Sequence record: NC_100331.1
Length of the DNA: 64,000 nucleotides
Source of the DNA: Escherichia phage vB_EcoS_HASG4
Strand: one strand, 5' to 3'
Of the stretch, positions 13,372-44,884 are shown one piece after another (the first letter of the stretch is position 1; each line of letters starts with the position of its first letter). The notes under the pieces are model-generated. The model was not told where the DNA came from and did not search any database. It was given only the letters and a program-made list of their open reading frames with translations. The position numbers were made by a program, and so were the translations under genes.

Positions 13372-13587
13372 TTACTCGCCCAGCAGTTTAAGAATATTTT
13401 CCTTAATAGTTTGGGCAGATTTTTCGCTCTTATTGGTTTCAGCCAGTTTTAGAGCAAGTTCTTCCTGCTGTTTCTGAATATCAGCAGCAATTTTCTGATC
13501 AGCCTCAATACGAGCTTGAAGTTCATCAGTAATAGTAGTAAAGGAAGCAACGATTTCAGTAACGGAACGTGGTTTCTTAGAGAACAT
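13372..13587 (-). CDS. hypothetical coiled-coil protein (71 aa)
   Basis: ORF-track ORF flanked by GGGGCTTTCGCCCC hairpins. Confidence 0.45.
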   Translation of the reverse strand: MFSKKPRSVTEIVASFTTITDELQARIEADQKIAADIQKQQEELALKLAETNKSEKSAQTIKENILKLLGE

Positions 13588-13646: not shown

Positions 13647-14162
13647 TTACTTCACTTTACGTTTGCGAGCTGGTTTAGCTGATTTACGAGGGGAATCGCC
13701 TGTGAATTTAATACCCACACCGTAACACAGAGCACGAACATTATCCTTGCTATATTCTACGCCAAAGATATTTGGCTTAACAGAACCAAACTGGCCACGA
13801 GTGTCACGCAGTACATCTGCCGTTGGTTTACGCTTCTGGTTAACTGCTTTCTCATAGTCTTTCATGGCCATGCCATTACGAGAGAACAATTCAGCTCCAG
13901 CATTGAAACTCAGTGTTACTGGAACAGATTTGTGGCCATAACCCTGTACATAGGTCACAAGGCGGGCTACAGAACGAGTAGCATTCTTAGCCTTCGGCTT
14001 TTGACGAATCGGAGCCGGACGATTCAGTGCCTGTGCAGCTTGAGCATCAGTAGGGTGCTTGCGCAGGTGGCGTTCCAGACGAGCTTTGCGGTTAGCCTCA
14101 GTCTGCGGGAAAGTTTTAACTGTAGTAGCTACTTGAGTTTTTGCGTTTTTCTGCTTAGCCAT
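13647..14162 (-). CDS. basic Lys/Arg-rich protein (171 aa), possibly nucleic-acid binding
   Basis: ORF-track ORF, promoter at 14201-14229; basic termini. Confidence 0.55.
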   Translation of the reverse strand: MAKQKNAKTQVATTVKTFPQTEANRKARLERHLRKHPTDAQAAQALNRPAPIRQKPKAKNATRSVARLVTYVQGYGHKSVPVTLSFNAGAELFSRNGMAMKDYEKAVNQKRKPTADVLRDTRGQFGSVKPNIFGVEYSKDNVRALCYGVGIKFTGDSPRKSAKPARKRKVK

Positions 14163-27900: not shown

Positions 27901-28398
27901 AGTTATATTGAATTGAGAGACATTAGTAAAAATTGATTTTGCTAATTTTTCTTGTTTACAATCCGCGATACGGAACAGTTAGGCTGCCCCATTAAGGGTT
28001 GTTTTAACTGTTACGTGTTAGTTTTTAAACAAATAATTAATAGAATACTTAGCGATCTACACCCCGTAGGAACCCTGGTAAGGCCTCGAAGCAACCTAGT
28101 GTGAGGTGGTTGTGAAGTGAGACGGGAAGAGTGAAAAACTCTGAGAAGTGATGACGTAAGGTATACTGCATCTAGTATGAGCTAGTACATGAAGCATTAG
28201 GTGAGCAAATCTGGCTTAGCGGCCATCCTCAAGGATTTGTGCGGTATAGTGAAGCGGCAGTGTAGCGTGAAAGTGGAAGTTGCCACCCCACTTCAGTATT
28301 TGCAATTAATTTGTTGAGAAATTGACAGTAACAGTTGTTCTATTCTTTCTGAATAGTCCTAAAGAAAACTTATTTCATTTCCAACACAGGAGTATTGT

Positions 28399-31189
28399 TG
28401 TGTTTTCAATCCTACAAGGTCATGCAGGATTTCATCGCGATTTAGCCACAGGCAATTGGCGAGAAGTTAAAGCAGAAGACTATCTTTTTGCTAAAAGATT
28501 TTCCTCAAAGCATCCTGAAGGTAAACCAGCTTCAATGCCCTTCAAGTTTGATGTAATTGACGAAATTGATCCTCAAACCCTAGTAGAAATGCTTCCTCTT
28601 ATGAGACGTTTAACGTCTGACCCTCATATCGTTGCGGTACGAGGTCGATGTCTTGCACCTAAAAATAATGTGCGACGTAAGAAGGGCAACTTTAATGTAT
28701 CTAATCCAAGTCATATAATCGCAATGGATGTGGATGGTATTGTAGATACAGGAGGTTGTAACAAGTTTGATCTTGTTGGTATGGCTCGACATATTATTAG
28801 GATGTTAAATAGTATTAGTGAGGATATGTTTCCTCTTGATGCAGGGTTTATTGCTCATGCATCATCTTCGGCTGGCCTAAAACCAGGTATCCGAATGCAC
28901 TTAATACTAGAATCTAATGTTAAAGTTACACAGGGTCAGATCAAGTTCTTATTTACATCTATCAACGAAAGTAGTAGACAAAAGTATGGCTTTGATATTG
29001 CCGACTTAGCTTATTACTCCTCCGTACAGCTTCATTACTTTGCAGATCCTTTATTTATTGATGGTATAGTCGATCCGTTTAAAGCGGAGGGTGCTTCACG
29101 TCTGGTATTTGTTAAGGGTTCGAAGGTAAATTTGCCTAATAATCTAGTTGACTATGAAACAACTAGAGGTGAGTTTAAGGAGGAGTTCTATTCTTTACTC
29201 GACCAAATTAAAGGTAAAAAAGCTGCCTCTGATAAAGTAGAGGAAACTATCAGCGAACTAGAAGAAGCTGAGGATGGAGTGTATCTACGTATTATTCCAA
29301 AGCTATATCACCGAGCGCTAGAGGATGGAGTAGATTTTGGTTGGCTAGAAAAAGAAATCCGCCCAGCTTTATCAGAATATATTGCAACTAAAGATAATAG
29401 CCGTAATATTCAGGATTATTTCAATAACGGACGGAAGCAGGCATTAAAAGCCTTTGTGAATAACTCTAAGCGTGAGATCCCTGAAGTATTAAAAGGTATC
29501 CCCCTTAAAAAGCTAGAAACTAATTCACTAGAGACCGACAACTTCTTGAAATTAAATACTGTACCACCAGAAGGTTATATGACTTTTGTAAAAGCAAGTC
29601 TAGGTACAGGTAAAACTACGGCGGTTGTGCGTTGGTTAGATTCAGGAGTTATTAAGGGTAATTTCTTAGCAATTACCAATACTCGAGCACTGGTATCTTC
29701 AAATGCTAAGAAATTTAGTGCAGGACAATATGATAAGTCTGTAGATATGCTTAATTTTAAGCGTGGTGCTATTGACCGTATGTCCACAACTATTCACTCT
29801 TTGCATAAGTTCAAGAGTTTTATTGGTCAAATTGATGCAATCTTTATCGATGAATGTGATGCAGTAATGAATGACCTATTATTCGCCCCAGTTGTTAAGC
29901 AACGTCGTGAGTGTATTCAGGTTCTTCGTGATATTCTTGCAACTGCAAAAATCATTATACTATCAGATGGTGATATTAGTGCTGAAACAATTGAAGCATA
30001 TGGTTCTTTAATTGAGTTCGATAAACCAGTAGCATTTTACAATCATCACCGTAAAATGCTGTCAAAAGCTCATGCTTATGAGTTCCCTGATGAGTCCAGT
30101 ATTTGGGTTGCACTTCAGACTTCTCTAGAGATGGGTGAGAAATCTATTCTAGTATCTGATTGTGGCCCTGATGAGCTTAATGAGAAGGGTATGGCACTAC
30201 GTCGTAATACGGGTGCATTAGTTAAGGAAATCCATTCAAACTCTACCTCAGATGTGGATATTCGACGTATTCTGGATTACACAACTAATGAGTTAATTGA
30301 TCAACAAATTGATTGCTTATTATGTAGTCCATCCGTAACGAGTGGAGTTGACTTCAACTATTTTGATAACGTATTTGTTATTACTAGAACCAGTAATCAA
30401 GCGCCAAACATGCGTTTCCAAGCAATCAGGCGCGACCGTGGTGCTCAGAATATCTATTATTTTATTGATAAATCCACTAGTGGATTCTCCGCAGGTTCTG
30501 AACAGTATAACATTGATGAGGGTTGGCTGGAGTTAGCACAGCAATTATACGCACGTCGCAGGGAGCTGGAATCTAGGAACTATACTAGTACTTTACGTTA
30601 TTACTTGCTTGATCAGGGTGCAACTATTGATATTTTCAGCGAAAGCTGGGGAACTATTGAAGGTGCTGGTAAAGAGTACACAGAAGAGCGAATTAAAGCT
30701 ATTCTACATTCAACTCCGGATTATTGTGCTCCACGTCATGCGGATGCGTATGAAGCTAAGCTACTTCTTGTTCGCTATTATCATCTTGAGTCTATTAAAG
30801 ATGTAACAGTTGAGCATGTTGAACAATATATCAAGGATAAACCGAATGATCGAGCAGCATTCTTCCATAAAATGCACGCGATGTTCTGGGAAGATATTAA
30901 GAAGTGTTCAAATGTCACTATCAAACCTTTCATAGAAGCTCTGAAAGGTAAGAAGAAAGATTTCTTCCTTAAAACAGGTCAGAGTGCTAACCCAAAATAT
31001 GCGAGAATGTATCTTGGTATGATGGGTATTGGTAAGGATATGAACACTGAAAATATTGTAGACTGGTACAGAACCTATTGTAAAATCGAGTGTATGCCAA
31101 TTCCTTATAAGTTCATGACTGACGAGGAAAAACATATGCATGATGAAGCAATGTCAGAGCTAGGTGCTAGAAATGACAGTGAAGAATAA
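28399..31189 (+). CDS. replication primase/helicase-like NTPase (about 930 aa)
   Basis: Start placed at GTG 28399 (AGGAG 7 nt upstream); HIIAMDVDG acidic motif in N-terminal half; Walker A LGTGKTT and Walker B IFIDECD in C-terminal half. Confidence 0.7.
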
Positions 31190-31474: not shown

Positions 31475-32179
31475 ATGGCCGGTTCTCGCAGAAAGAAACA
31501 TATCCATGAAATCCCGGATGAAGTCTTTAAAAAGGTTATAGAGCATCTGGAGAACGGTGGTACCAAGAAAGCAGCTTGTGAAATGATCGGCGTATCATCC
31601 AATCCGACTATGGAAAGGATGATAGAAGAGTGGCAAGATCGCCAAATTCAAGTTGCCGAGATGAAGAAAAAGAAACGTGGTACACTCATTGAAGGTATTG
31701 AGTTGGCCAACGTTATTGAACAATATCTATCTGGTGATTCTTTTGAAGAGATTGCCGATCGTAATTACCGCTCTGTAGCAATGGTTAAATCTGTTCTGGA
31801 ACGCTATGGCGCTCTGCTTCGTTTGAATGATATTGTAGATCCATTGAATCCACCAATTATTCCTGATGATGCTGTAGCAGAAGAATTTGAGGTTGGAGAA
31901 CTTGTTTGGGTTCCTGGATACCAGTGTATCGGTGAAATCAAAAAAGCAATGGATAATCCTGTTGGTTGCTATCGTGTATGGCTTCTATCGGAAGGCAAAC
32001 AACAGAACGTTCATTATATGAATTATGAGCTGGCTTCTGTTAAACATCTGGAAAAGTTAGGGGTAGACGTAAAATCTCTGGGGTACAAATGGACTCGGGA
32101 AGAAGTCATTACGTTGATTAACGAAGCTGTTAAGGCTGCCTTGAAACTTGATAAAGAAAAAGGAAAACGCCGTGAGTAA
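31475..32179 (+). CDS. putative DNA-binding protein (234 aa)
   Basis: N-terminal helix-turn-helix-like region (GGTKKAACEMIGVSSNPTMERMI); Lys-rich C-terminus. Confidence 0.55.
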   Translation: MAGSRRKKHIHEIPDEVFKKVIEHLENGGTKKAACEMIGVSSNPTMERMIEEWQDRQIQVAEMKKKKRGTLIEGIELANVIEQYLSGDSFEEIADRNYRSVAMVKSVLERYGALLRLNDIVDPLNPPIIPDDAVAEEFEVGELVWVPGYQCIGEIKKAMDNPVGCYRVWLLSEGKQQNVHYMNYELASVKHLEKLGVDVKSLGYKWTREEVITLINEAVKAALKLDKEKGKRRE

Positions 32180-32423
32180 GCTAACAGATTTGCTTAAAGA
32201 TGGGGAAGTAAAGACTCTGTATCGTAGAAGCTGGGATAATGATAATACTGGCTTAGTATTACTAACTCTAGATGCTGACTCAGATGTAGTTACTCAGCAT
32301 ACCTGGGTAGCTGGCAATTATCCGTATAGCGAGGTTGTCACATTAACAGTATGCGAAGCTATTGCGGACGATTGGGAGGTTGCCAGCATCGATGATATGC
32401 TCGCTGTTGGCCTGGTGGAGTAA
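32172..32423 (+). CDS. hypothetical acidic protein (about 83 aa)
   Basis: GTG start with RBS AAAGGAAAA, overlapping the end of the upstream gene. Confidence 0.45.
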   Translation: MSKLTDLLKDGEVKTLYRRSWDNDNTGLVLLTLDADSDVVTQHTWVAGNYPYSEVVTLTVCEAIADDWEVASIDDMLAVGLVE

Positions 32424-32440: not shown

Positions 32441-32470
32441 TTGCTTAATCCTACAATTCTTGATATAATA
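32441..32470 (+). promoter_or_regulatory. early promoter (TTGCTT-N18-TATAAT)
   Basis: -35 at 32441-32446, -10 at 32465-32470. Confidence 0.5.
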
Positions 32471-32526: not shown

Positions 32527-32937
32527 ATGACTACTCCAACTCAGTGGACTGATGAACTGTTCGAAAAAATGTCTTCCGAATATGTTGCTCGTATGGAGCA
32601 ATTCCCAGAGGATGAACGTCCGGGTGTTAGCATGGAAATTGTTAGCGAAATTGCCCAGGAAAATGGTGTAACTCCGAACGGTTTTCGTATGAAGCTGACT
32701 AAAGCAGGTTTGTATATTAAGAAAGCTGCTGGTTCTACTTCTAAATCTAGCGCATCTACTGGAGAAAAAGCTTCCGGTGGTTCTCGTACCTCCAAAGCTC
32801 AAGCCCATGCCGATCTTCGTTCAGCATTCTCTGATGCTGGCCTAGCACCAGATTTTCTGGATGATGCAATTATCGACAAACTGACCGGTAAAGCGGCTGC
32901 TCATCTGGCAGAAGCAATCCGAGCTATCACTAAGTAA
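32527..32937 (+). CDS. abundant small protein with one HTH-like repeat unit and a Ser/Thr/Lys-rich linker
   Basis: Codon usage typical of highly expressed genes (ctg/cgt/ggt/aaa); EIVSEIAQENGVTPNGFRMKL resembles the repeats of 35935-36702. Confidence 0.6.
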   Translation: MTTPTQWTDELFEKMSSEYVARMEQFPEDERPGVSMEIVSEIAQENGVTPNGFRMKLTKAGLYIKKAAGSTSKSSASTGEKASGGSRTSKAQAHADLRSAFSDAGLAPDFLDDAIIDKLTGKAAAHLAEAIRAITK

Positions 32938-32973
32938 TTTTTAGATAAATCCACCAACAAAAGGAACACAGTT

Positions 32974-33270
32974 ATGACCAAAGCTGAAATTATCGCACAA
33001 TGTGAAAAATTTGGTGAGTTTTATCTTCATTACGAGAAACTTCGTCAGAAAGGAACCACGTACCTCCAGGGTACAATGGAATTTGATCCAGCCCAAGATA
33101 AATATCTGGCTGAACGTATTAAACGTGAACGTATTCGTAAAGCGAAAGATGATGAAATCCTTGTCTTCTCTCGTACTAATGATAGCTTCCGTTTTATTCC
33201 TGTCGAGAAGGTCCGTCGTGTGACTAGCCTCCAATCAGAGTTAGATCGTGCTTCTCCAGTAGGCCGATAA
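32974..33270 (+). CDS. hypothetical protein (98 aa)
   Basis: ORF-track ORF followed by a terminator at 33281. Confidence 0.5.
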   Translation: MTKAEIIAQCEKFGEFYLHYEKLRQKGTTYLQGTMEFDPAQDKYLAERIKRERIRKAKDDEILVFSRTNDSFRFIPVEKVRRVTSLQSELDRASPVGR

Positions 33271-33280
33271 GAAACCAATT

Positions 33281-33303
33281 AGCCCCTATATGGGGCTTTT
33301 TGT
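33281..33303 (+). terminator. rho-independent terminator
   Basis: Hairpin AGCCCCTATATGGGGCT followed by TTTTTGTG. Confidence 0.65.
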
Positions 33304-33320
33304 GTATTTGGGATATGTAA

Positions 33321-33629
33321 ATGAGCGAACAGGTAAATCAAAACTATGAAGGACACGTTGATGACCAGTCCATCATACTTTGGGAGAAGGAGGGAGAACA
33401 AGTAAGATTAACAGTATCTGAATTTCGTGGGAATCTATACATGGGTATTCGTTACTGGCTTCTTGATATTAATGATGAATGGTTTCCAACGAAATCTGGC
33501 TTCTCTTTTCCTTACACCCTAGAAACAACATCACAGCTTTTCTATGCGTTTACTCAGATTCTTAGCGAATCTGAGGTTTTACATGAAGTACAGAAACGAG
33601 CTGAAGAACTCAAAGCCAAGAATGCCTAG
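33321..33629 (+). CDS. hypothetical protein (102 aa)
   Basis: ORF-track ORF followed by a terminator. Confidence 0.5.
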   Translation: MSEQVNQNYEGHVDDQSIILWEKEGEQVRLTVSEFRGNLYMGIRYWLLDINDEWFPTKSGFSFPYTLETTSQLFYAFTQILSESEVLHEVQKRAEELKAKNA

Positions 33630-33645
33630 TTCTTGGCTTTTTCTT
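33616..33645 (+). terminator. rho-independent terminator
   Basis: Hairpin GCCAAGAA-TGCCTAG-TTCTTGGC followed by TTTTTCTTT. Confidence 0.65.
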
Positions 33646-33656
33646 TATAAATGTAT

Positions 33657-33685
33657 TTGCTTTCAACTCAGTTTTGTTATATAAT
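33657..33685 (+). promoter_or_regulatory. early promoter (TTGCTT-N17-TATAAT)
   Basis: -35 at 33657-33662, -10 at 33680-33685. Confidence 0.55.
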
Positions 33686-33715
33686 ATTTATATAAATTAA
33701 TGAGAGGGTTGCAAA

Positions 33716-33988
33716 GTGAAAAAGATAAATATAAGTACACTTAAACCTTTTCCATATATCGGACAGCCTCTCATACTCATGTGGGAGGAAAAGATTAATG
33801 GGGAAAAGTATACTAAAACTAGAATTGGATATAAACTGATTTCACTTTATTACGAAAAAGAAGTATTAATAGCTGAAATATACTCTCCATTATCGGGCAG
33901 GCTAGTAAAAACTACATATTTGCATCTTTGCAAAAATTATACGTGGCACGGATCTACCAGACAACCCACGTACTATGAGGCAGAATAA
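33716..33988 (+). CDS. hypothetical protein (90 aa)
   Basis: GTG start; stop abuts the ligase start. Confidence 0.45.
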   Translation: MKKINISTLKPFPYIGQPLILMWEEKINGEKYTKTRIGYKLISLYYEKEVLIAEIYSPLSGRLVKTTYLHLCKNYTWHGSTRQPTYYEAE

Positions 33989-34960
33989 ATGACCAATGTA
34001 AAAGAATTTATTAAACGCTGTCAAGAAGCATATTATCAGGGTATGTCTTTAATCTCTGATGAGGAGTATGATTGCCTGGTAAAACGCTTCCCGTTAGAAG
34101 AAGAGATCGGGCCTAAGGGCGATATTCCACATCTGTATCGTATGTATTCTTTACAGAAAGTTTATTATAATCGTGGAGATAAACCCCCATTTAACCCATT
34201 AGGTCAGGTAGAAACTGACAAGTTAGATGGTTGTGCGATTTCTCTATTATATATTAATGGCGAATTTGTTCAAGCACTAACTCGTGGTAATGGTATTCTA
34301 GGGAATGATGTCACAAGCAACGTAAGACTGCTGAATATCCCTAAAAAGATTTCCCAAAAAGTACCAACTCAAATCACTGGTGAAGTTCTAATTACAAAAG
34401 AAGTAGAAAATAAACGTAACTTTGCCTCTGGTGCTATTAACCTCAAAGATAGCGATGATTTCGTACAACGTATCGGGGAAGGCGGTTTAATCTTCGTTGC
34501 ATACGGTATCCAGTGTTCTGCCGAATCTGTAGGTATTACAGAATCGTATTTAAAAGATATGCTTTGGCTAGAGAATGAGAACTTCTTAACAGTTGTTAAT
34601 GTGCGTTCCTTCTTTAAATGGATTCCGACTGACGGTAAAGTTGTTCGTATTAATGACAACAACAAATTCTTCCGTGAGGGCTGGACAAATAAATTCCCTC
34701 GTGGAGCATTCGCCATTAAAGAGGATGAAGAAGGCGAAATTACAACTCTTACTAAAGTTGAGTGGCAGGTAGGGGCTTCTGGTAAAGTAACTCCAGTTGG
34801 CTATTTCGAACCGGTAATTATTGATGATGCTACAATTGTTAAAGCGACTCTTAATAACGTTGATTATATTAACTCTCTCGATCTAGAGATCGGTTGCCAG
34901 ATTCGAGTGATTCGTGCTGGTGGTGTAATCCCGTGTATAGTAGAGCGAGTATACGATTAA
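33989..34960 (+). CDS. NAD-dependent DNA ligase, N-terminal fragment (adenylation and OB domains)
   Basis: LISDEEYD near N-terminus and adenylation motif TDKLDGCAISLLY (KxDG), typical of LigA-type ligases. Confidence 0.75.
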   Translation: MTNVKEFIKRCQEAYYQGMSLISDEEYDCLVKRFPLEEEIGPKGDIPHLYRMYSLQKVYYNRGDKPPFNPLGQVETDKLDGCAISLLYINGEFVQALTRGNGILGNDVTSNVRLLNIPKKISQKVPTQITGEVLITKEVENKRNFASGAINLKDSDDFVQRIGEGGLIFVAYGIQCSAESVGITESYLKDMLWLENENFLTVVNVRSFFKWIPTDGKVVRINDNNKFFREGWTNKFPRGAFAIKEDEEGEITTLTKVEWQVGASGKVTPVGYFEPVIIDDATIVKATLNNVDYINSLDLEIGCQIRVIRAGGVIPCIVERVYD

Positions 34961-35103
34961 TACATAACCCTTTGCTACCCATCTACCATATCGGAATTAT
35001 AAAGTGGTTATTGACATTTTCGCCGCTTAGGTATATACTATTATCATTCAGTTGAGGGATAGAAAGTTATGGCGAGGGTAAGCAAAGTTAGTTAAAATTG
35101 TAG

Positions 35104-35132
35104 TTGCTAAATGCTTAAATACTTGCTATAAT
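35104..35132 (+). promoter_or_regulatory. early promoter (TTGCTA-N17-TATAAT) between the two ligase fragments
   Basis: -35 at 35104-35109, -10 at 35127-35132. Confidence 0.55.
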
Positions 35133-35162
35133 ATTTATATAAATTGATAAGGAAGAAATTTG

Positions 35163-35942
35163 ATGAAAATCGAAATTCCAACACAATGTCCCTCTTGTGG
35201 TTCTAAGCTAGATCTTGTCAACGGACAATTATTCTGTCGTAATAAGTCCAACTGTCCAGCGCAATCAAGCAAGTTAATTGAGAACTTCTGTTCAAAAATG
35301 AAGTTAAAGGGCTTTGGCCCAAAAACTATTGAGAAGCTGGAGCTGACGAAGATTTCAGAACTATTTTACCTAACCGAAGAAGATTTGGTTAGAGCCGTGG
35401 GTAGCAAGGTTGCCGCTAAGTTAATTAGCGAATTAAATACTAAAGTTCGCGGAGACATTGACTTTGGTTCAGTTCTCGGTTCTTTAGGAATCCCTCTAAT
35501 TGGAGAAGTTGCAGCAAAGAAACTATCCCAAAATTGCACTAGCTTCCATGATGTGAAGGCTGACGGCAAGGCTGGAGAAAATTACAAAGCCTGGCTAAAT
35601 TCCCCACAAGGCAAGGATGTTATTGAACTACCGTGGAAATTTTCAACTGGTGTTAAGGGCACTAAAGCTGACGTCATCATTACAGATGAATTAGTTGCCC
35701 AGCCAAATGGAATCGCGGTATGTATTACCGGATCTTTGCAAGATTTTGCAAATCGAACGGATGCAACAAACTATTTAGAAGGTCTAGGATATACGGTTAA
35801 GAAATCCGTTACCAAAGACGTCAAATACCTAATCTGTGAGGATGAATCGAAGCGTTCTTCCTCATCTTATAAGAAAGCCGAAACGAATGGGATAGAAATC
35901 CTGTCGATTAAAGAACTATTGGAGAAAAATAATAATGTCTAA
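35163..35942 (+). CDS. NAD-dependent DNA ligase, C-terminal fragment (Zn finger, HhH, BRCT-like)
   Basis: CPSCGSKLDLVNGQLFCRNKSNCPAQ Zn-finger followed by helix-hairpin-helix-like GIPLIGEVAAKKL and a C-terminal BRCT-like region. Confidence 0.7.
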   Translation: MKIEIPTQCPSCGSKLDLVNGQLFCRNKSNCPAQSSKLIENFCSKMKLKGFGPKTIEKLELTKISELFYLTEEDLVRAVGSKVAAKLISELNTKVRGDIDFGSVLGSLGIPLIGEVAAKKLSQNCTSFHDVKADGKAGENYKAWLNSPQGKDVIELPWKFSTGVKGTKADVIITDELVAQPNGIAVCITGSLQDFANRTDATNYLEGLGYTVKKSVTKDVKYLICEDESKRSSSSYKKAETNGIEILSIKELLEKNNNV

Positions 35943-36702
35943 ACTGAACTGGAACGTAGAAGGTGTAACCGAGTCTCTGAAAGCAAAAGCCACTGCTCTG
36001 GGTGTTTCTGTAATCTCTCAAGAACAAGTAGCTGCTATCGCTGCTGAACTGGCTGCTGAAACCGGCAAAGATGTTACTGCTCGCTCTGTTGGCTCTAAAC
36101 TGCGTAAAGAAGGTTTTGAAGTACAAAAAGCTAACGAAGTACAGAAATCTCCGTGGACTCCTGAGCAGGAAGCTGAACTGGTTGATTTCCTGAATGCTCA
36201 TGCTGGTCAGTATACCTATGCTGAAATCGCTGCTGCTGTAGCTGGTGGTCAGTTCGGTGCTAAACAGGTACAGGGTAAGATCCTGAGTCTGGAAATGACC
36301 GCTTCTGTTAAGCCAACCGAAAAAGCTGCTGCTGTTCGTTCCTTCACTCCGGATGAAGAAACTGATTTTGTTAATCAGGTTGTTGCTGGTGCTACTATTG
36401 AAGCTATCGCTGCTCACTTCGGTCGTAATATCAAGCAGATCCGTGGTAAAGCTCTGAGCCTGCTTCGTGAAGGTCGTATCGCTGCTATGCCGGTACAGGA
36501 AACCTCAAGTGCTAAAACTCGTGAAGATCTGTTAGAAGGTCTGGATCTGGTTAACATGACTGTTGCTGAGATCGCTGAGAAAACTGGTAAATCTGAGCGC
36601 GGTGTTAAATCTATGCTGTCTCGTCGTGGTCTGGTTGCTAAGGACTATGATGGTGCCGCTAAGCGTGCTAAACTGGATGCAAAAGCTGCGGCTGCTGAAT
36701 AA
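35935..36702 (+). CDS. abundant protein built of four tandem HTH-like repeats (255 aa)
   Basis: Four roughly 55-aa units each with ..IAA..G.....VxGK.LSL.R.G; strongly biased codon usage. Confidence 0.7.
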   Translation: MSKLNWNVEGVTESLKAKATALGVSVISQEQVAAIAAELAAETGKDVTARSVGSKLRKEGFEVQKANEVQKSPWTPEQEAELVDFLNAHAGQYTYAEIAAAVAGGQFGAKQVQGKILSLEMTASVKPTEKAAAVRSFTPDEETDFVNQVVAGATIEAIAAHFGRNIKQIRGKALSLLREGRIAAMPVQETSSAKTREDLLEGLDLVNMTVAEIAEKTGKSERGVKSMLSRRGLVAKDYDGAAKRAKLDAKAAAAE

Positions 36703-36720
36703 TCTGGTAAATTAAACCTA

Positions 36721-36753
36721 AGGGGAGGGGGCTATGCTCCTTCCCCTTTTTGC
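36721..36753 (+). terminator. rho-independent terminator
   Basis: Hairpin AGGGGAGGGGGCTATGCTCCTTCCCCT followed by TTTTTG. Confidence 0.7.
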
Positions 36754-36784
36754 ATTTAGAAGGCACGAAAGCGTGCAAAGGAGA

Positions 36785-38257
36785 ATGACCTTGTTTAACG
36801 TGCAAGCTGTAGTGTTGAAGATGCTTCTAGCTTCCGAACAGAAGCAAATAGCATTGGAAACATTCTCAAAACTGCATAAAGATCATTTTAATGACGCTTT
36901 CTCCTCAATTTACCAAGCCGTCCAGAATTATTATAAAAAATATAACACAATGCCGTCCATTGACGCACTTATGCTTGAAGCTAATAGGAACGCCCGCCTT
37001 TCTCAAGCTCTAGTCGTCTTAGCTAACACTCAAATTCCAGAAGTGAGCATGGAACAGGCACTTGAAGTCCTAGAGGCCGAATATACACAGGATTTATTCC
37101 TGAAGCTTCTAGAAACAGACGTGCTTCAAGATTTAACAATGCTGGATCAGGGAGAAATTCTCAACCGAGTTGCCTCCCTTCACTTAAAATTAGAAGAGAA
37201 AGTAACGAATACTGGAAAAGTATTCAACGCAGATAACATGCGTATTTTCCAGAGAGAAGAAGATACCAAACTGAATTTAATCGCTCTTGGTATTTGTAAT
37301 GAGTTCGACGCTCAAATTGGTTTAGCTCGCACAGAAACGTTACTGCTTGGTGGTTGGCGTGGTACTGGTAAATCCATTATCTGTTCAAACATACAGGTTC
37401 AGCAATATTTGAATGGAGATATTGCTCCATACTTCTCAATTGAGATGAAAGAACATGAAGTATTTAGACGTAATCTAGCCATGTTAGCTGGTGTATCAGC
37501 ACTAGCAATGCGTAATAATACTCTAGAAGGTGCAGCTCTGTTGAGATTAGCCAGAACTAGAGCTAGGATGTTTAACGGTGGTGAAGAGCTTTTCGATAAC
37601 TTTGTTAAACAGTACACAATGGCTAAGATGAGTGATTTCTACGATATGGAGAGTAAGCTAATAGAGGGATATGAACTACATACTCCTATGATTATCGTTT
37701 ATGACCCTGAACTGTCCATTACAACAGTTGATGTAGAATTAAATAAATTAGTTGCTAGATATGGTGATAAAGTTACAGTAGCTTTACTGGACTATATTAA
37801 CCAAACCCGACTTCCAGATTCTAAAACCATTGATATGTATGACTGGAAAGAACAGATGGTTGTTAGCTCGTCTTTCAAATCCATCTGCCAGAAACATAAC
37901 GTGGCTGGTGTAGCTCCTTACCAGATCGATCAAGATGGTAGAACACGTATGTCAAAGGGGATTCTTGATTCCGCAGACATGGCTGCTAATCTTAATGCTG
38001 CAAAAGCCGATAATGGTCAAGGTGCTATTATGTTTGACTTCGTTAAGACTCGTTCTTCTGATAGCGTGAAGTTTATGCCTAAGATGAACTGGGAAACCTT
38101 GCGGATGGATAACACTACCAACCTAGCAATGGAAGATATATCTCAAATGGAAGCTGAGTTCGTTATCCCTATTGAGAAGGATAAGCCGGCTCAACCTAAA
38201 CGTGCTAAGAAAGACAAAACTGAAAATTCAACAGGTGAACAGGCCAGCGATATATGA
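36785..38257 (+). CDS. DnaB-like replicative helicase
   Basis: Start at ATG 36785 (RBS AAGGAG); Walker A GGWRGTGKS about 200 aa in, RecA-like C-terminal half. Confidence 0.65.
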   Translation: MTLFNVQAVVLKMLLASEQKQIALETFSKLHKDHFNDAFSSIYQAVQNYYKKYNTMPSIDALMLEANRNARLSQALVVLANTQIPEVSMEQALEVLEAEYTQDLFLKLLETDVLQDLTMLDQGEILNRVASLHLKLEEKVTNTGKVFNADNMRIFQREEDTKLNLIALGICNEFDAQIGLARTETLLLGGWRGTGKSIICSNIQVQQYLNGDIAPYFSIEMKEHEVFRRNLAMLAGVSALAMRNNTLEGAALLRLARTRARMFNGGEELFDNFVKQYTMAKMSDFYDMESKLIEGYELHTPMIIVYDPELSITTVDVELNKLVARYGDKVTVALLDYINQTRLPDSKTIDMYDWKEQMVVSSSFKSICQKHNVAGVAPYQIDQDGRTRMSKGILDSADMAANLNAAKADNGQGAIMFDFVKTRSSDSVKFMPKMNWETLRMDNTTNLAMEDISQMEAEFVIPIEKDKPAQPKRAKKDKTENSTGEQASDI

Positions 38258-43833: not shown

Positions 43834-44118
43834 ATGCTTACCGAGCCTGATGCTCACCAATTGTTGGTCGGTTCCTCATTCATTTTGAATGAATCAACAA
43901 TAGTTGATAATCCAAATAAATTGTCTAATAGACAACTGGCAGAATATCTAGGAATTTTAAGTCTACGAAATTATGCCGAATACAAGTTTACAAACGATCC
44001 TAGTTTGGACATACAATATGTTCCAGTATGGATACCACGTTTAGTAATCGACACTAACCCACTAATCGCAATTAACAAATCGAAATTAATCTTTAAAGAG
44101 GAAATAAAATATGGCTAA
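43834..44118 (+). CDS. hypothetical protein (94 aa), AT-rich
   Basis: ORF-track ORF. Confidence 0.45.
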   Translation: MLTEPDAHQLLVGSSFILNESTIVDNPNKLSNRQLAEYLGILSLRNYAEYKFTNDPSLDIQYVPVWIPRLVIDTNPLIAINKSKLIFKEEIKYG

Positions 44119-44884
44119 GTCTTGGGGCGAAACTACTGGCGGTTCTAACGATAAAATCGAATTCCTGAAGTTCAACAACGGTATCACTCGTGTTCGTATC
44201 GTTTCTGGTGTTCTTCCACGTTATGTATATTGGCTGACTAATAAAGAGGGTAGCGTAGCTCCTTTCGAATGTCTCCGTTTTAACCGTGACAAAGAGAGCT
44301 TTGTTCGTGGTAAAGCTGATCCGGTTCATGAGATGGGCTTCTTTGAGAAAGAGCTGGATAAAGATGGTAATCGTGTTCCGCTGAAACCGAAGAAAAACTA
44401 TATCGCCTTTGTTATTGACCGTTCTGATAACAAACTGAAAGTAATGGAAGTCAAGGCTACTATTCTGAAAGGCATCCAGTCTATCATGAAGCAGTTGAAC
44501 CTGGCAACTCCGTTTGATATTGATATTTCTATCGAGAAAAAAGGTAAAGGTTTCGATACTGAGTATGATGTACAGCAGATTGCTGCTATGCAGTTCCAGA
44601 TTAAGCTGCAAGATCCTAACAGTGCGGAATCTAAGCAATATGCTGCGGATGTAGATCTGATCGGTGAAGCTATGTGTGATGAAGATGGCGACATCATTAA
44701 GTTCGAAAAAGTTCCTTCTCTGGAACAAACCTATCCGGTTCCTACCTATGAAGAGCAGAAAGAAGCAATTCTAGCCTTCATGGAAGGTCGTGAGAATAAA
44801 GATGATGATGCCAAATCTGGTAATAGCAATGCAGGTTCCCAGAAAGGTATTGACTCAGAAGCTGCAAGCGATCTGGACGACTAA
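44111..44884 (+). CDS. putative ssDNA-binding protein (acidic C-terminal tail)
   Basis: Highly-expressed codon usage, position inside replication module, acidic C-terminus DSEAASDLDD. Confidence 0.5.
   Translation: MAKSWGETTGGSNDKIEFLKFNNGITRVRIVSGVLPRYVYWLTNKEGSVAPFECLRFNRDKESFVRGKADPVHEMGFFEKELDKDGNRVPLKPKKNYIAFVIDRSDNKLKVMEVKATILKGIQSIMKQLNLATPFDIDISIEKKGKGFDTEYDVQQIAAMQFQIKLQDPNSAESKQYAADVDLIGEAMCDEDGDIIKFEKVPSLEQTYPVPTYEEQKEAILAFMEGRENKDDDAKSGNSNAGSQKGIDSEAASDLDD

Follow-up and report, generated by a model that had tools for sequence, protein, structure and literature searches.

Two early genes of Escherichia phage vB_EcoS_HASG4, D5 and D3, were analyzed within a 64,000-nucleotide stretch of DNA (NC_100331.1, here called the window) with regard to gene identity, repeat architecture, fold class, kinship between the two proteins, codon bias, conservation and synteny. 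A preliminary description of this DNA had proposed a family of highly expressed, possibly histone-like or nucleoid-remodeling proteins, of which a 255-amino acid (aa) protein would contain four tandem units of a helix-turn-helix (HTH)-like type and a 136-aa protein one such unit. Both open reading frames (ORFs) were found where it had placed them:

35935-36702 (+): gene D5, 255 aa, 27 kDa, pI 6.8; probably an abundant double-stranded DNA-binding protein of T5-like phages, with four tandem HTH units
32527-32937 (+): gene D3, 136 aa, 14.5 kDa, pI 5.7; 'D3 protein' in T5-like records

As judged from profile comparisons and a structure model, D5 is an array of four tandem small HTH modules of the GcrA/sigma-region-4/Myb type. 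D3 carries a single related module.

Knowledge of D5 goes back to the 1970s, as a DNA-binding protein on which T5 replication and late gene expression depend. T5-like records about 97% identical in DNA name the gene 'D5 protein/DNA-binding protein', and residues 1-253 matched PHROG 323 ('transcriptional regulator, D5-like', E=1.4e-71). D5 of phage T5 (T5.118; PHROG 323) is the same protein, of equal length (255 aa) and without substantive difference, and has the same position between the genes for NAD-ligase subunit B (ligB) and a DnaB-like helicase, as expected for the T5 D5 family. The gene is carried by 901 phage records (889 at full length, that is at least 80% coverage), all of them genomes of about 100-127 kb, and a homolog search returned 759 proteins at E<=1e-3, nearly all of 240-260 aa and with identity down to 47%. 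The 'phage-encoded DNA binding protein' of T5 in the DRT4 paper was considered as D5 and set aside; that protein is ORF55.

Residues 1-136 of D3 matched PHROG 1725 ('DNA binding protein', E=4.9e-50), and it is this database label that attributes DNA binding to D3. The gene was present in 559 phage records, 558 of them at coverage of at least 80%, and tblastn gave homologs of at least 95% identity in 432, several annotated 'D3 protein'. The 4.4-kb stretch around D3-D5 was 100% identical in DNA to Escherichia phage vB_EcoS_EASG3 and shared 93-98% identity with hundreds of genomes of Tequintavirus and Epseptimavirus. Both are ordinary annotated core genes of T5-like phages (Demerecviridae), located in the early replication module; they are already known and named in hundreds of sequenced phages and do not constitute a new kind of system. 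The preliminary description was sound on the proteins, their repeats and their HTH character, and had missed that they are named and long-studied T5 genes.

Repeat architecture and fold class of D5

When four arbitrary quarters of D5 were compared by Smith-Waterman alignment (300 shuffles), units 2 and 3 gave z=7.3 and the remaining pairs z of -0.6 to 2.6. Since plain alignment supported the one pair only, profiles were built from homologs: an alignment of 41 D5 homologs was split into the four units and the unit profiles were compared by hhalign. Units 2 and 3 matched with a probability of 96% and E=4.2e-9, followed by units 3 and 4 (1.1e-4), 1 and 2 (1.8e-4, 50 columns), 1 and 4 (3.9e-4), 1 and 3 (8.9e-4) and 2 and 4 (9.4e-3), and all six pairs were in register across the HTH part. 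The four units are thus significant as repeats over this whole range of profile-profile comparisons, and the period of about 55 aa proposed for them agrees with the Gly-to-Gly distance between successive third helices (G53, G114, G171 and G223), which is 52-61 aa.

An AlphaFold2 model computed on the 41-homolog alignment had a mean predicted local distance difference test (pLDDT) score of 93.9 and a predicted template modeling score (pTM) of 0.54. It contained four HTH modules, of which three are full three-helix bundles, and a Vibrio phage D5, independently predicted (BFVD), superposed globally on it with a template modeling (TM) score of 0.70. The predicted units are as follows:

35935-36141 (+): D5 unit 1 (aa 1-69), three-helix HTH, predicted helices 11-22/29-43/49-58; W6; recognition helix ARSVGSKLRKEG
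36142-36324 (+): D5 unit 2 (aa 70-130), three-helix HTH, predicted helices 76-88/95-101/109-118; W74; recognition helix AKQVQGKILSLE
36325-36495 (+): D5 unit 3 (aa 131-187), three-helix HTH, predicted helices 139-150/155-162/166-178; F137; recognition helix IKQIRGKALSLLREG
36496-36699 (+): D5 unit 4 (aa 188-255), predicted HTH helices 210-217/221-231, SERGVKSMLSRRG; then a conserved C-terminal helix 240-254, DYDGAAKRAKLD...

Unit 4 has the HTH part alone in common with the other units. Conservation was concentrated in the third helices: 22 of the 53 positions that are invariant or nearly invariant among the 41 homologs fall within these four helices, which make up 44 of the 255 residues (hypergeometric p=1.4e-6). 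Most of the invariant residues lie in these helices, namely R50, K55 and R57 in unit 1, Q113, G114 and K115 in unit 2, G171 and K172 in unit 3 (with a nearly invariant R170) and G223, R230 and R231 in unit 4. At the DNA level, the only repeats within D5 were matches of 12-28 nt due to biased codons of the ATCGCTGCT type, with no recent duplication, and because the DNA is without long repeats the duplication is taken to be ancient.

The unit that had been called HTH-like appears, from sequence profiles and models, to be a genuine helix-turn-helix module of the DNA-binding type. Pfam gave one HTH-type match per unit (HTH_33 at 32-68, Myb at 71-100, HTH_23 at 151-184 and Sigma70_r4_2 at 204-230), of which only the last was above its cut-off (28.8 bits against 25.7). 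D5 did not have the Pfam pattern of the sigma-70 family, as the region 4 match was confined to unit 4, region 3 remained below cut-off and region 2 gave no match. The Pfam family Myb_DNA-binding (PF00249) reached 17.6 bits on D5 against a cut-off of 24.4, and 9 of 30 isolated units matched it at E<=1.

Single units also resembled GcrA. The GcrA sequence taken from the Protein Data Bank (PDB) matched unit 3 by hhalign with E=6.3e-6 (probability 85%, 46 columns), unit 1 with 4.5e-5, unit 2 with 7e-4, unit 4 with 1.7e-3 and the N terminus of D3 with 1.1e-3; the alignments were in register and covered nearly all of the GcrA sequence for units 1-3 and most of it for unit 4 and the D3 N terminus. 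The GcrA-family signature W...IA..LG...V.GK..RLG, with a three-helix N-terminal DNA-binding domain (DBD), was present, and the motif '..IAA..G....VxGK.LSL.R.G' of the preliminary description corresponds to 'SQIAKQLGGVTRNAVIGKVHRLGL' in GcrA. In the crystal structure of GcrA with DNA, helices 2 and 3 lie in the major groove and the residues that contact DNA include G38 and K39; the DBD resembles sigma region 4, and a second domain, a CCCH zinc finger, binds sigma-70 region 2 (PMC5887438). In the alignments with units 2 and 3, the counterpart of G38 and K39 is the invariant G-K. Neither D5 nor D3 contains a cysteine, so that the CCCH domain is absent, and for this reason the two proteins are regarded as having GcrA-DBD-like modules and not as members of the GcrA family. 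The GcrA family model PF07750 gave no match at E<=1 to full-length D5 or D3 and matched one of the 30 isolated units (E=0.013). Caulobacter crescentus GcrA (PDB 5yiu; PF07750) has one DBD, a linker and the CCCH domain, whereas D5 has four DBD-like modules.

A pooled profile of units 2 and 3 matched SNAPC4 (3e-7), c-Myb R1R2R3 (1.2e-6) and MYB21 (2.3e-6), and GcrA weakly (0.18). Like D5, the Myb/SANT proteins c-Myb R1R2R3 and SNAPC4 consist of tandem three-helix HTH repeats of about 50-60 aa whose start is marked by a conserved aromatic residue; unlike D5, they are eukaryotic and have three regularly spaced Trp per Myb repeat. Among PDB sequences, the whole-D5 profile found only designed variants of the engrailed homeodomain, over unit 1 (E=7.5e-4), and a phmmer search with single units found no match.

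Kinship of D3 with D5

A D3 profile run against 1.84 billion cluster representatives matched 201 of them at E<=1e-3, almost all of 110-150 aa in length, and among the 150 of these that were listed there was no protein of D5 length (240-260 aa). HMMER alone failed to bridge the two families, and profile-profile comparison was therefore needed. By hhalign, residues 1-67 of D3 aligned end to end with residues 1-66 of D5 (probability 90%, E=1.7e-6), in agreement with the single similar unit that had been proposed for the 136-aa protein; with enlarged alignments (the 201 representatives) the kinship with unit 1 held at a probability of 88% and E=2.9e-6. Secondary matches of the D3 N terminus were to the HTH of unit 4 (4e-5 with enlarged alignments, 1.1e-4 in the first pass) and to unit 3 (2.8e-4). 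Against 536 segments translated from stop to stop across the window, the best non-self match of the D3 N-terminal hidden Markov model (HMM) was D5, and that of the unit 1 and unit 4 HMMs was D3.

The D3 model (mean pLDDT 76.8) consisted of an N-terminal three-helix module, a linker and a second three-helix domain:

32527-32727 (+): D3 N-terminal unit (aa 1-67), homologous to D5 unit 1; predicted helices 9-23/31-46/50-59; W7; recognition helix NGFRMKLTKAG
32728-32793 (+): D3 Ser/Gly/Lys-rich linker (aa 68-89), predicted disordered; pLDDT below 50 at 68-72 and 84-86; no secondary structure at 60-89
32794-32934 (+): D3 C-terminal domain (aa 90-136), predicted three-helix; invariant DKLTGKAA; no detectable relation to D5 units

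Comparison of D3 residues 84-136 with the D5 units by hhalign gave no similarity. The protein is the same as D3 of T5 (PHROG 1725), to which the two-domain layout and the kinship with D5 unit 1 are additions of the present analysis. Precomputed annotations place Pfam PF26822.1 on five D5 homologs and three D3 homologs; this unconfirmed entry, perhaps a new family for the unit that D3 and D5 share, would lend independent support to their kinship.

Expression signals and gene neighborhood

The codon adaptation index (CAI) was calculated for 63 ORFs of the window with the E. coli relative adaptiveness weights of Sharp and Li (1987). The strongly biased codons attributed to both genes, a signature of abundant proteins, were borne out by these values, as D5 ranked first of the 63 (CAI 0.72, z=4.2) and D3 third (0.54, z=2.4). 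A principal component analysis of relative synonymous codon usage, which needs no reference index, placed D5, D3 and a 257-aa ORF at one extreme. Of the Leu codons in D5 and D3 taken together, 81% were CTG (other ORFs 15%), of the Arg codons 83% were CGT (48%) and of the Gly codons 86% were GGT (54%). The bias is not a GC effect, because GC content at third codon positions (GC3) stays low at 0.31.

The 257-aa ORF (44111-44884, +), with rank 2 of 63 (CAI 0.55), has an acidic C-terminal tail (...SEAASDLDD) and no Pfam match, and is probably the phage's SSB (single-stranded DNA-binding protein). Two further small ORFs, on the minus strand, also had high CAI values, of 0.49 (13647-14162, a DUF7022 protein, E=3.8e-77) and 0.48 (13372-13587, no Pfam match).

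Putative transcription signals around the two genes were the following:

32441-32469 (+): putative early-type sigma-70 promoter before D3, TTGCTT-17-TATAAT, then ATT
35011-35039 (+): putative early-type promoter for ligB-D5 in the ligA-ligB gap, TTGACA-17-TATACT, then ATT
35104-35132 (+): second putative early-type promoter for ligB-D5 in the same gap, TTGCTA-17-TGnTATAAT, then ATT
36720-36748 (+): predicted strong intrinsic terminator directly after D5, 13-bp stem with 8 G-C pairs, T run

The ATT that follows each of the three candidate promoters is as in the ATATT discriminator, which is the signature of early-class T5 promoters (Klimuk et al., PMC7472727). The ATG of D5 overlaps the ligB stop codon (ATGTCTAA), with GGAG upstream. 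Virion preparations of phage phiR2-01 gave spectral counts for a D5 orthologue that ranked among the highest, though the protein is no known virion component (PMC8624392).

The local gene order is large helicase, a 234-aa ORF labeled 'D2 protein', D3, a 98-aa ORF, a PC4-like single-stranded DNA-binding protein, ligase A, ligase B, D5, DnaB-like helicase, primase and DNA polymerase. Three marine relatives, in which D5 is 47% identical, keep the order D3...PC4-ligA-ligB-D5-DnaB-primase-PolA. The PC4-like protein (33321-33629, +, 102 aa; transcriptional coactivator p15, PF02229, 32.1 bits, above cut-off) lies between D3 and the ligase and is kept in the marine relatives as well. The NAD-dependent DNA ligase consists of two ORFs (33989-34960 and 35160-35942, +), and the gap of about 200 bp between them holds the two early-type promoters listed above. 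Between the 234-aa ORF and D3 lies a 91-aa ORF (32148-32423, +) with a weak, below-cut-off Pfam match to Tad2-like proteins (Thoeris anti-defense 2; E=0.0075, 17.2 bits), which also matched PHROG 643 ('transcriptional regulator', E=2.3e-21).

Some records name the 234-aa ORF (31475-32179, +) 'D2 protein', and PHROG 3611 has it as 'helicase'. Its Pfam matches were of HTH type only (HTH_23 at 21-42, HTH_28 at 79-113), without a helicase domain. The characterized D2 bipolar helicase has its Walker A motif near residue 400 (PMC3632103) and corresponds to the large upstream ORF 28322-31189 (+); the 'D2' label appears to have moved onto the wrong gene. The 234-aa ORF was also considered as a third member of the D3/D5 family; it gave a Smith-Waterman z of 4.4 against D5, but unit HMMs reached only E=0.2-1.6, and it was left out.

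For the DnaB-like helicase (ORF 36734-38257, 507 aa), the start used in GenBank relatives (ATG 36734) sits in the loop of the terminator hairpin after D5, and only from residue 32 of the ORF onward is there homology to a marine orthologue (450 aa). Translation probably starts further downstream, at ATG 36785 or ATG 36821.

Role of D5 and D3 during infection

Rice and co-workers in 1979 and Fujimura and Roop in 1983 are said to have found that D5 binds duplex DNA cooperatively and that T5 polymerase is inhibited on duplex regions. DNA binding by D5, and the need for it in T5 replication and late gene expression, are taken from the literature (McCorquodale 1979, in the account relayed by PMC12630848). 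A 2026 retron preprint describes D5 only as having 'a helix-turn-helix motif' and reports that the type IX retron-Kva2 is triggered by T5 D5 and, from mass photometry, that D5 remodels the retron complex; binding of D5 to the multicopy single-stranded DNA (msDNA) of the retron is an AlphaFold3 prediction in the same work. Mutations that escaped retron-Kva2 were G53D, W74*, V149I and G232D in D5, E30Q and G85D in D3, and E76Q in the gene that the preprint calls 'D2'. Three of these D5 sites (G53, W74 and G232) are nearly invariant in the 41-homolog alignment. From the GcrA alignments, G53 would be the Gly of the unit 1 G-K motif, W74 the leading Trp of unit 2 and G232 the Gly ending helix 3 of unit 4.

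The explanation we favor, at a probability of roughly 0.75, is that D5 is an abundant architectural protein that binds double-stranded phage DNA through four HTH modules, and that D3 is a small, likewise abundant, single-module relative. It is the combination of the classical binding work, the extreme codon bias and the position in the replication module that points to such a protein of the phage chromosome. D5 would be made in very large amounts soon after second-step DNA transfer, and the third helix of each module would be placed in a major groove, so that one monomer would grip several successive grooves, with many monomers coating double-stranded phage DNA. Architectural and largely stoichiometric binding of this type may serve phage replication and may turn early transcription off and late transcription on. 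D3 would probably act on the same DNA or nucleoprotein complex.

The suggestion of a histone-like protein holds in a functional sense only. The phi29 protein p6 is an abundant 'histone-like' double-stranded DNA binder that complexes the phage genome, is needed for replication and takes part in the early-late switch (PMC4974454), and D5, if an abundant double-stranded DNA binder for replication and the early-late switch, would be like it in these respects. There is no relation in sequence or fold between the two, as p6 is a small protein multimerising on bendable DNA and D5 a tandem HTH array. When D5 and D3 were compared with HU/IHF, H-NS and phi29 p6, neither showed the fold or sequence of those families; D5 is neutral (pI 6.8) and D3 acidic (pI 5.7). 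Nucleoid remodeling, which had also been proposed, is unlikely for the host nucleoid because the pre-early protein A1 of T5 degrades the host chromosome before the early genes, D3 and D5 among them, arrive and are expressed (bioRxiv 10.64898/2026.04.02.716235). With the host chromosome degraded first, the DNA open to D5 would therefore be phage DNA.

Several observations weigh against an architectural D5 with D3 as its relative. The low pTM (0.54) leaves the mutual arrangement of the units uncertain, and unit 4 is without a predicted first helix and resembles unit 2 weakly (E=9.4e-3). D5 is not basic. The cooperative, sequence-independent binding is taken from what the classical papers reportedly found. 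Domains of the GcrA and Myb types mostly read specific sequences, and this would suit a specific regulator no less than one that coats DNA. For D3, comparison of the C-terminal domain with the PDB gave nothing informative, and D3 did not trigger retron-Kva2 (2026 retron preprint).

The best-surviving alternative is that D5 is a conventional sequence-specific transcription factor, acting catalytically and not as a coat, with four heads that recognize a composite operator close to early or late promoters. The database labels ('transcription factor D5', 'transcriptional regulator, D5-like') are in line with it, as are the sequence-specific readers among the closest folds (GcrA, Myb, resolvase, Tc3), and D5 mutants fail in late gene expression, at least in what PMC12630848 recounts, while an explanation for the T5 early-late switch is still lacking (PMC7472727). 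We nevertheless think it rather unlikely. The codon adaptation of D5 is the strongest in the window, comparable to or above that of the putative SSB, and therefore indicates stoichiometric amounts. Binding in the classical work is said to have been cooperative and to extend to duplex DNA at large. Repeated candidate operators did not turn up, although no search aimed at operators was made. The abundance of the D5 orthologue in mass spectrometry (PMC8624392) and the AlphaFold3 prediction of D5 on an unrelated DNA, the msDNA stem-loop of the retron, also speak against a dedicated regulator.

A more speculative proposal, to which we give somewhat less credence still, is that D5 is the missing early-to-late switch of T5. 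Its four heads would read promoter-proximal features that differ between early and late sigma-70 promoters (e.g. ATATT), silencing the early and permitting the late ones; D3 would modulate or compete, and the retron escape sites in D5, D3 and 'D2' would mark one complex.

It is distinctly improbable that D5, D3 or both are GcrA-like cofactors that ride on host sigma-70 RNA polymerase (RNAP) and redirect it to late promoters. The GcrA DBD-like modules, the sigma region 4-like match and the late-gene phenotype of D5 (again in the account relayed by PMC12630848) would suit such a role, and the conserved C-terminal helix of D5 (240-254) and the separate C-terminal domain of D3 could be protein-interaction modules. 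The sigma-interacting CCCH domain of GcrA is absent, however, with no cysteine in either protein, and high abundance is unexpected for an RNAP-bound cofactor. The role is not favored, as gpA1, a pb8 fragment and gpT5.026, but neither D5 nor D3, came with the RNAP that was purified from T5-infected cells (PMC7472727); these published preparations give no support to a stable association of D5 or D3 with RNAP.

Finally, that the repeats and the codon bias are a compositional artefact of an alanine-rich gene (17% Ala) of higher GC content (0.47 against about 0.39 in the window), saying nothing on structure or expression, would agree with the non-significance of most plain pairwise unit alignments but is scarcely credible and is counted as refuted, given significant in-register profile comparisons, a confident AlphaFold2 model, alignment of an outside protein, GcrA, to all D5 units, and a bias toward specific E. 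coli optimal codons at low GC3.

Returning to the architectural protein favored here, the searchable literature was not found to state the four-fold GcrA/sigma-4/Myb-like architecture of D5, the concentration of conservation in its four recognition helices, or the homology of the D3 N terminus with D5 unit 1. The four-module architecture and the D3-D5 kinship constitute a modest annotation refinement. How host RNAP is switched from early to late genes in T5 has been stated to be still unknown (PMC7472727), and four GcrA/sigma-4-like heads with conservation in their recognition helices suggest concrete mutants and binding experiments on this switch. The four-head view of D5 also helps to account for its sensing by the retron via msDNA (2026 retron preprint), and the kinship with D5 provides a first handle on D3.

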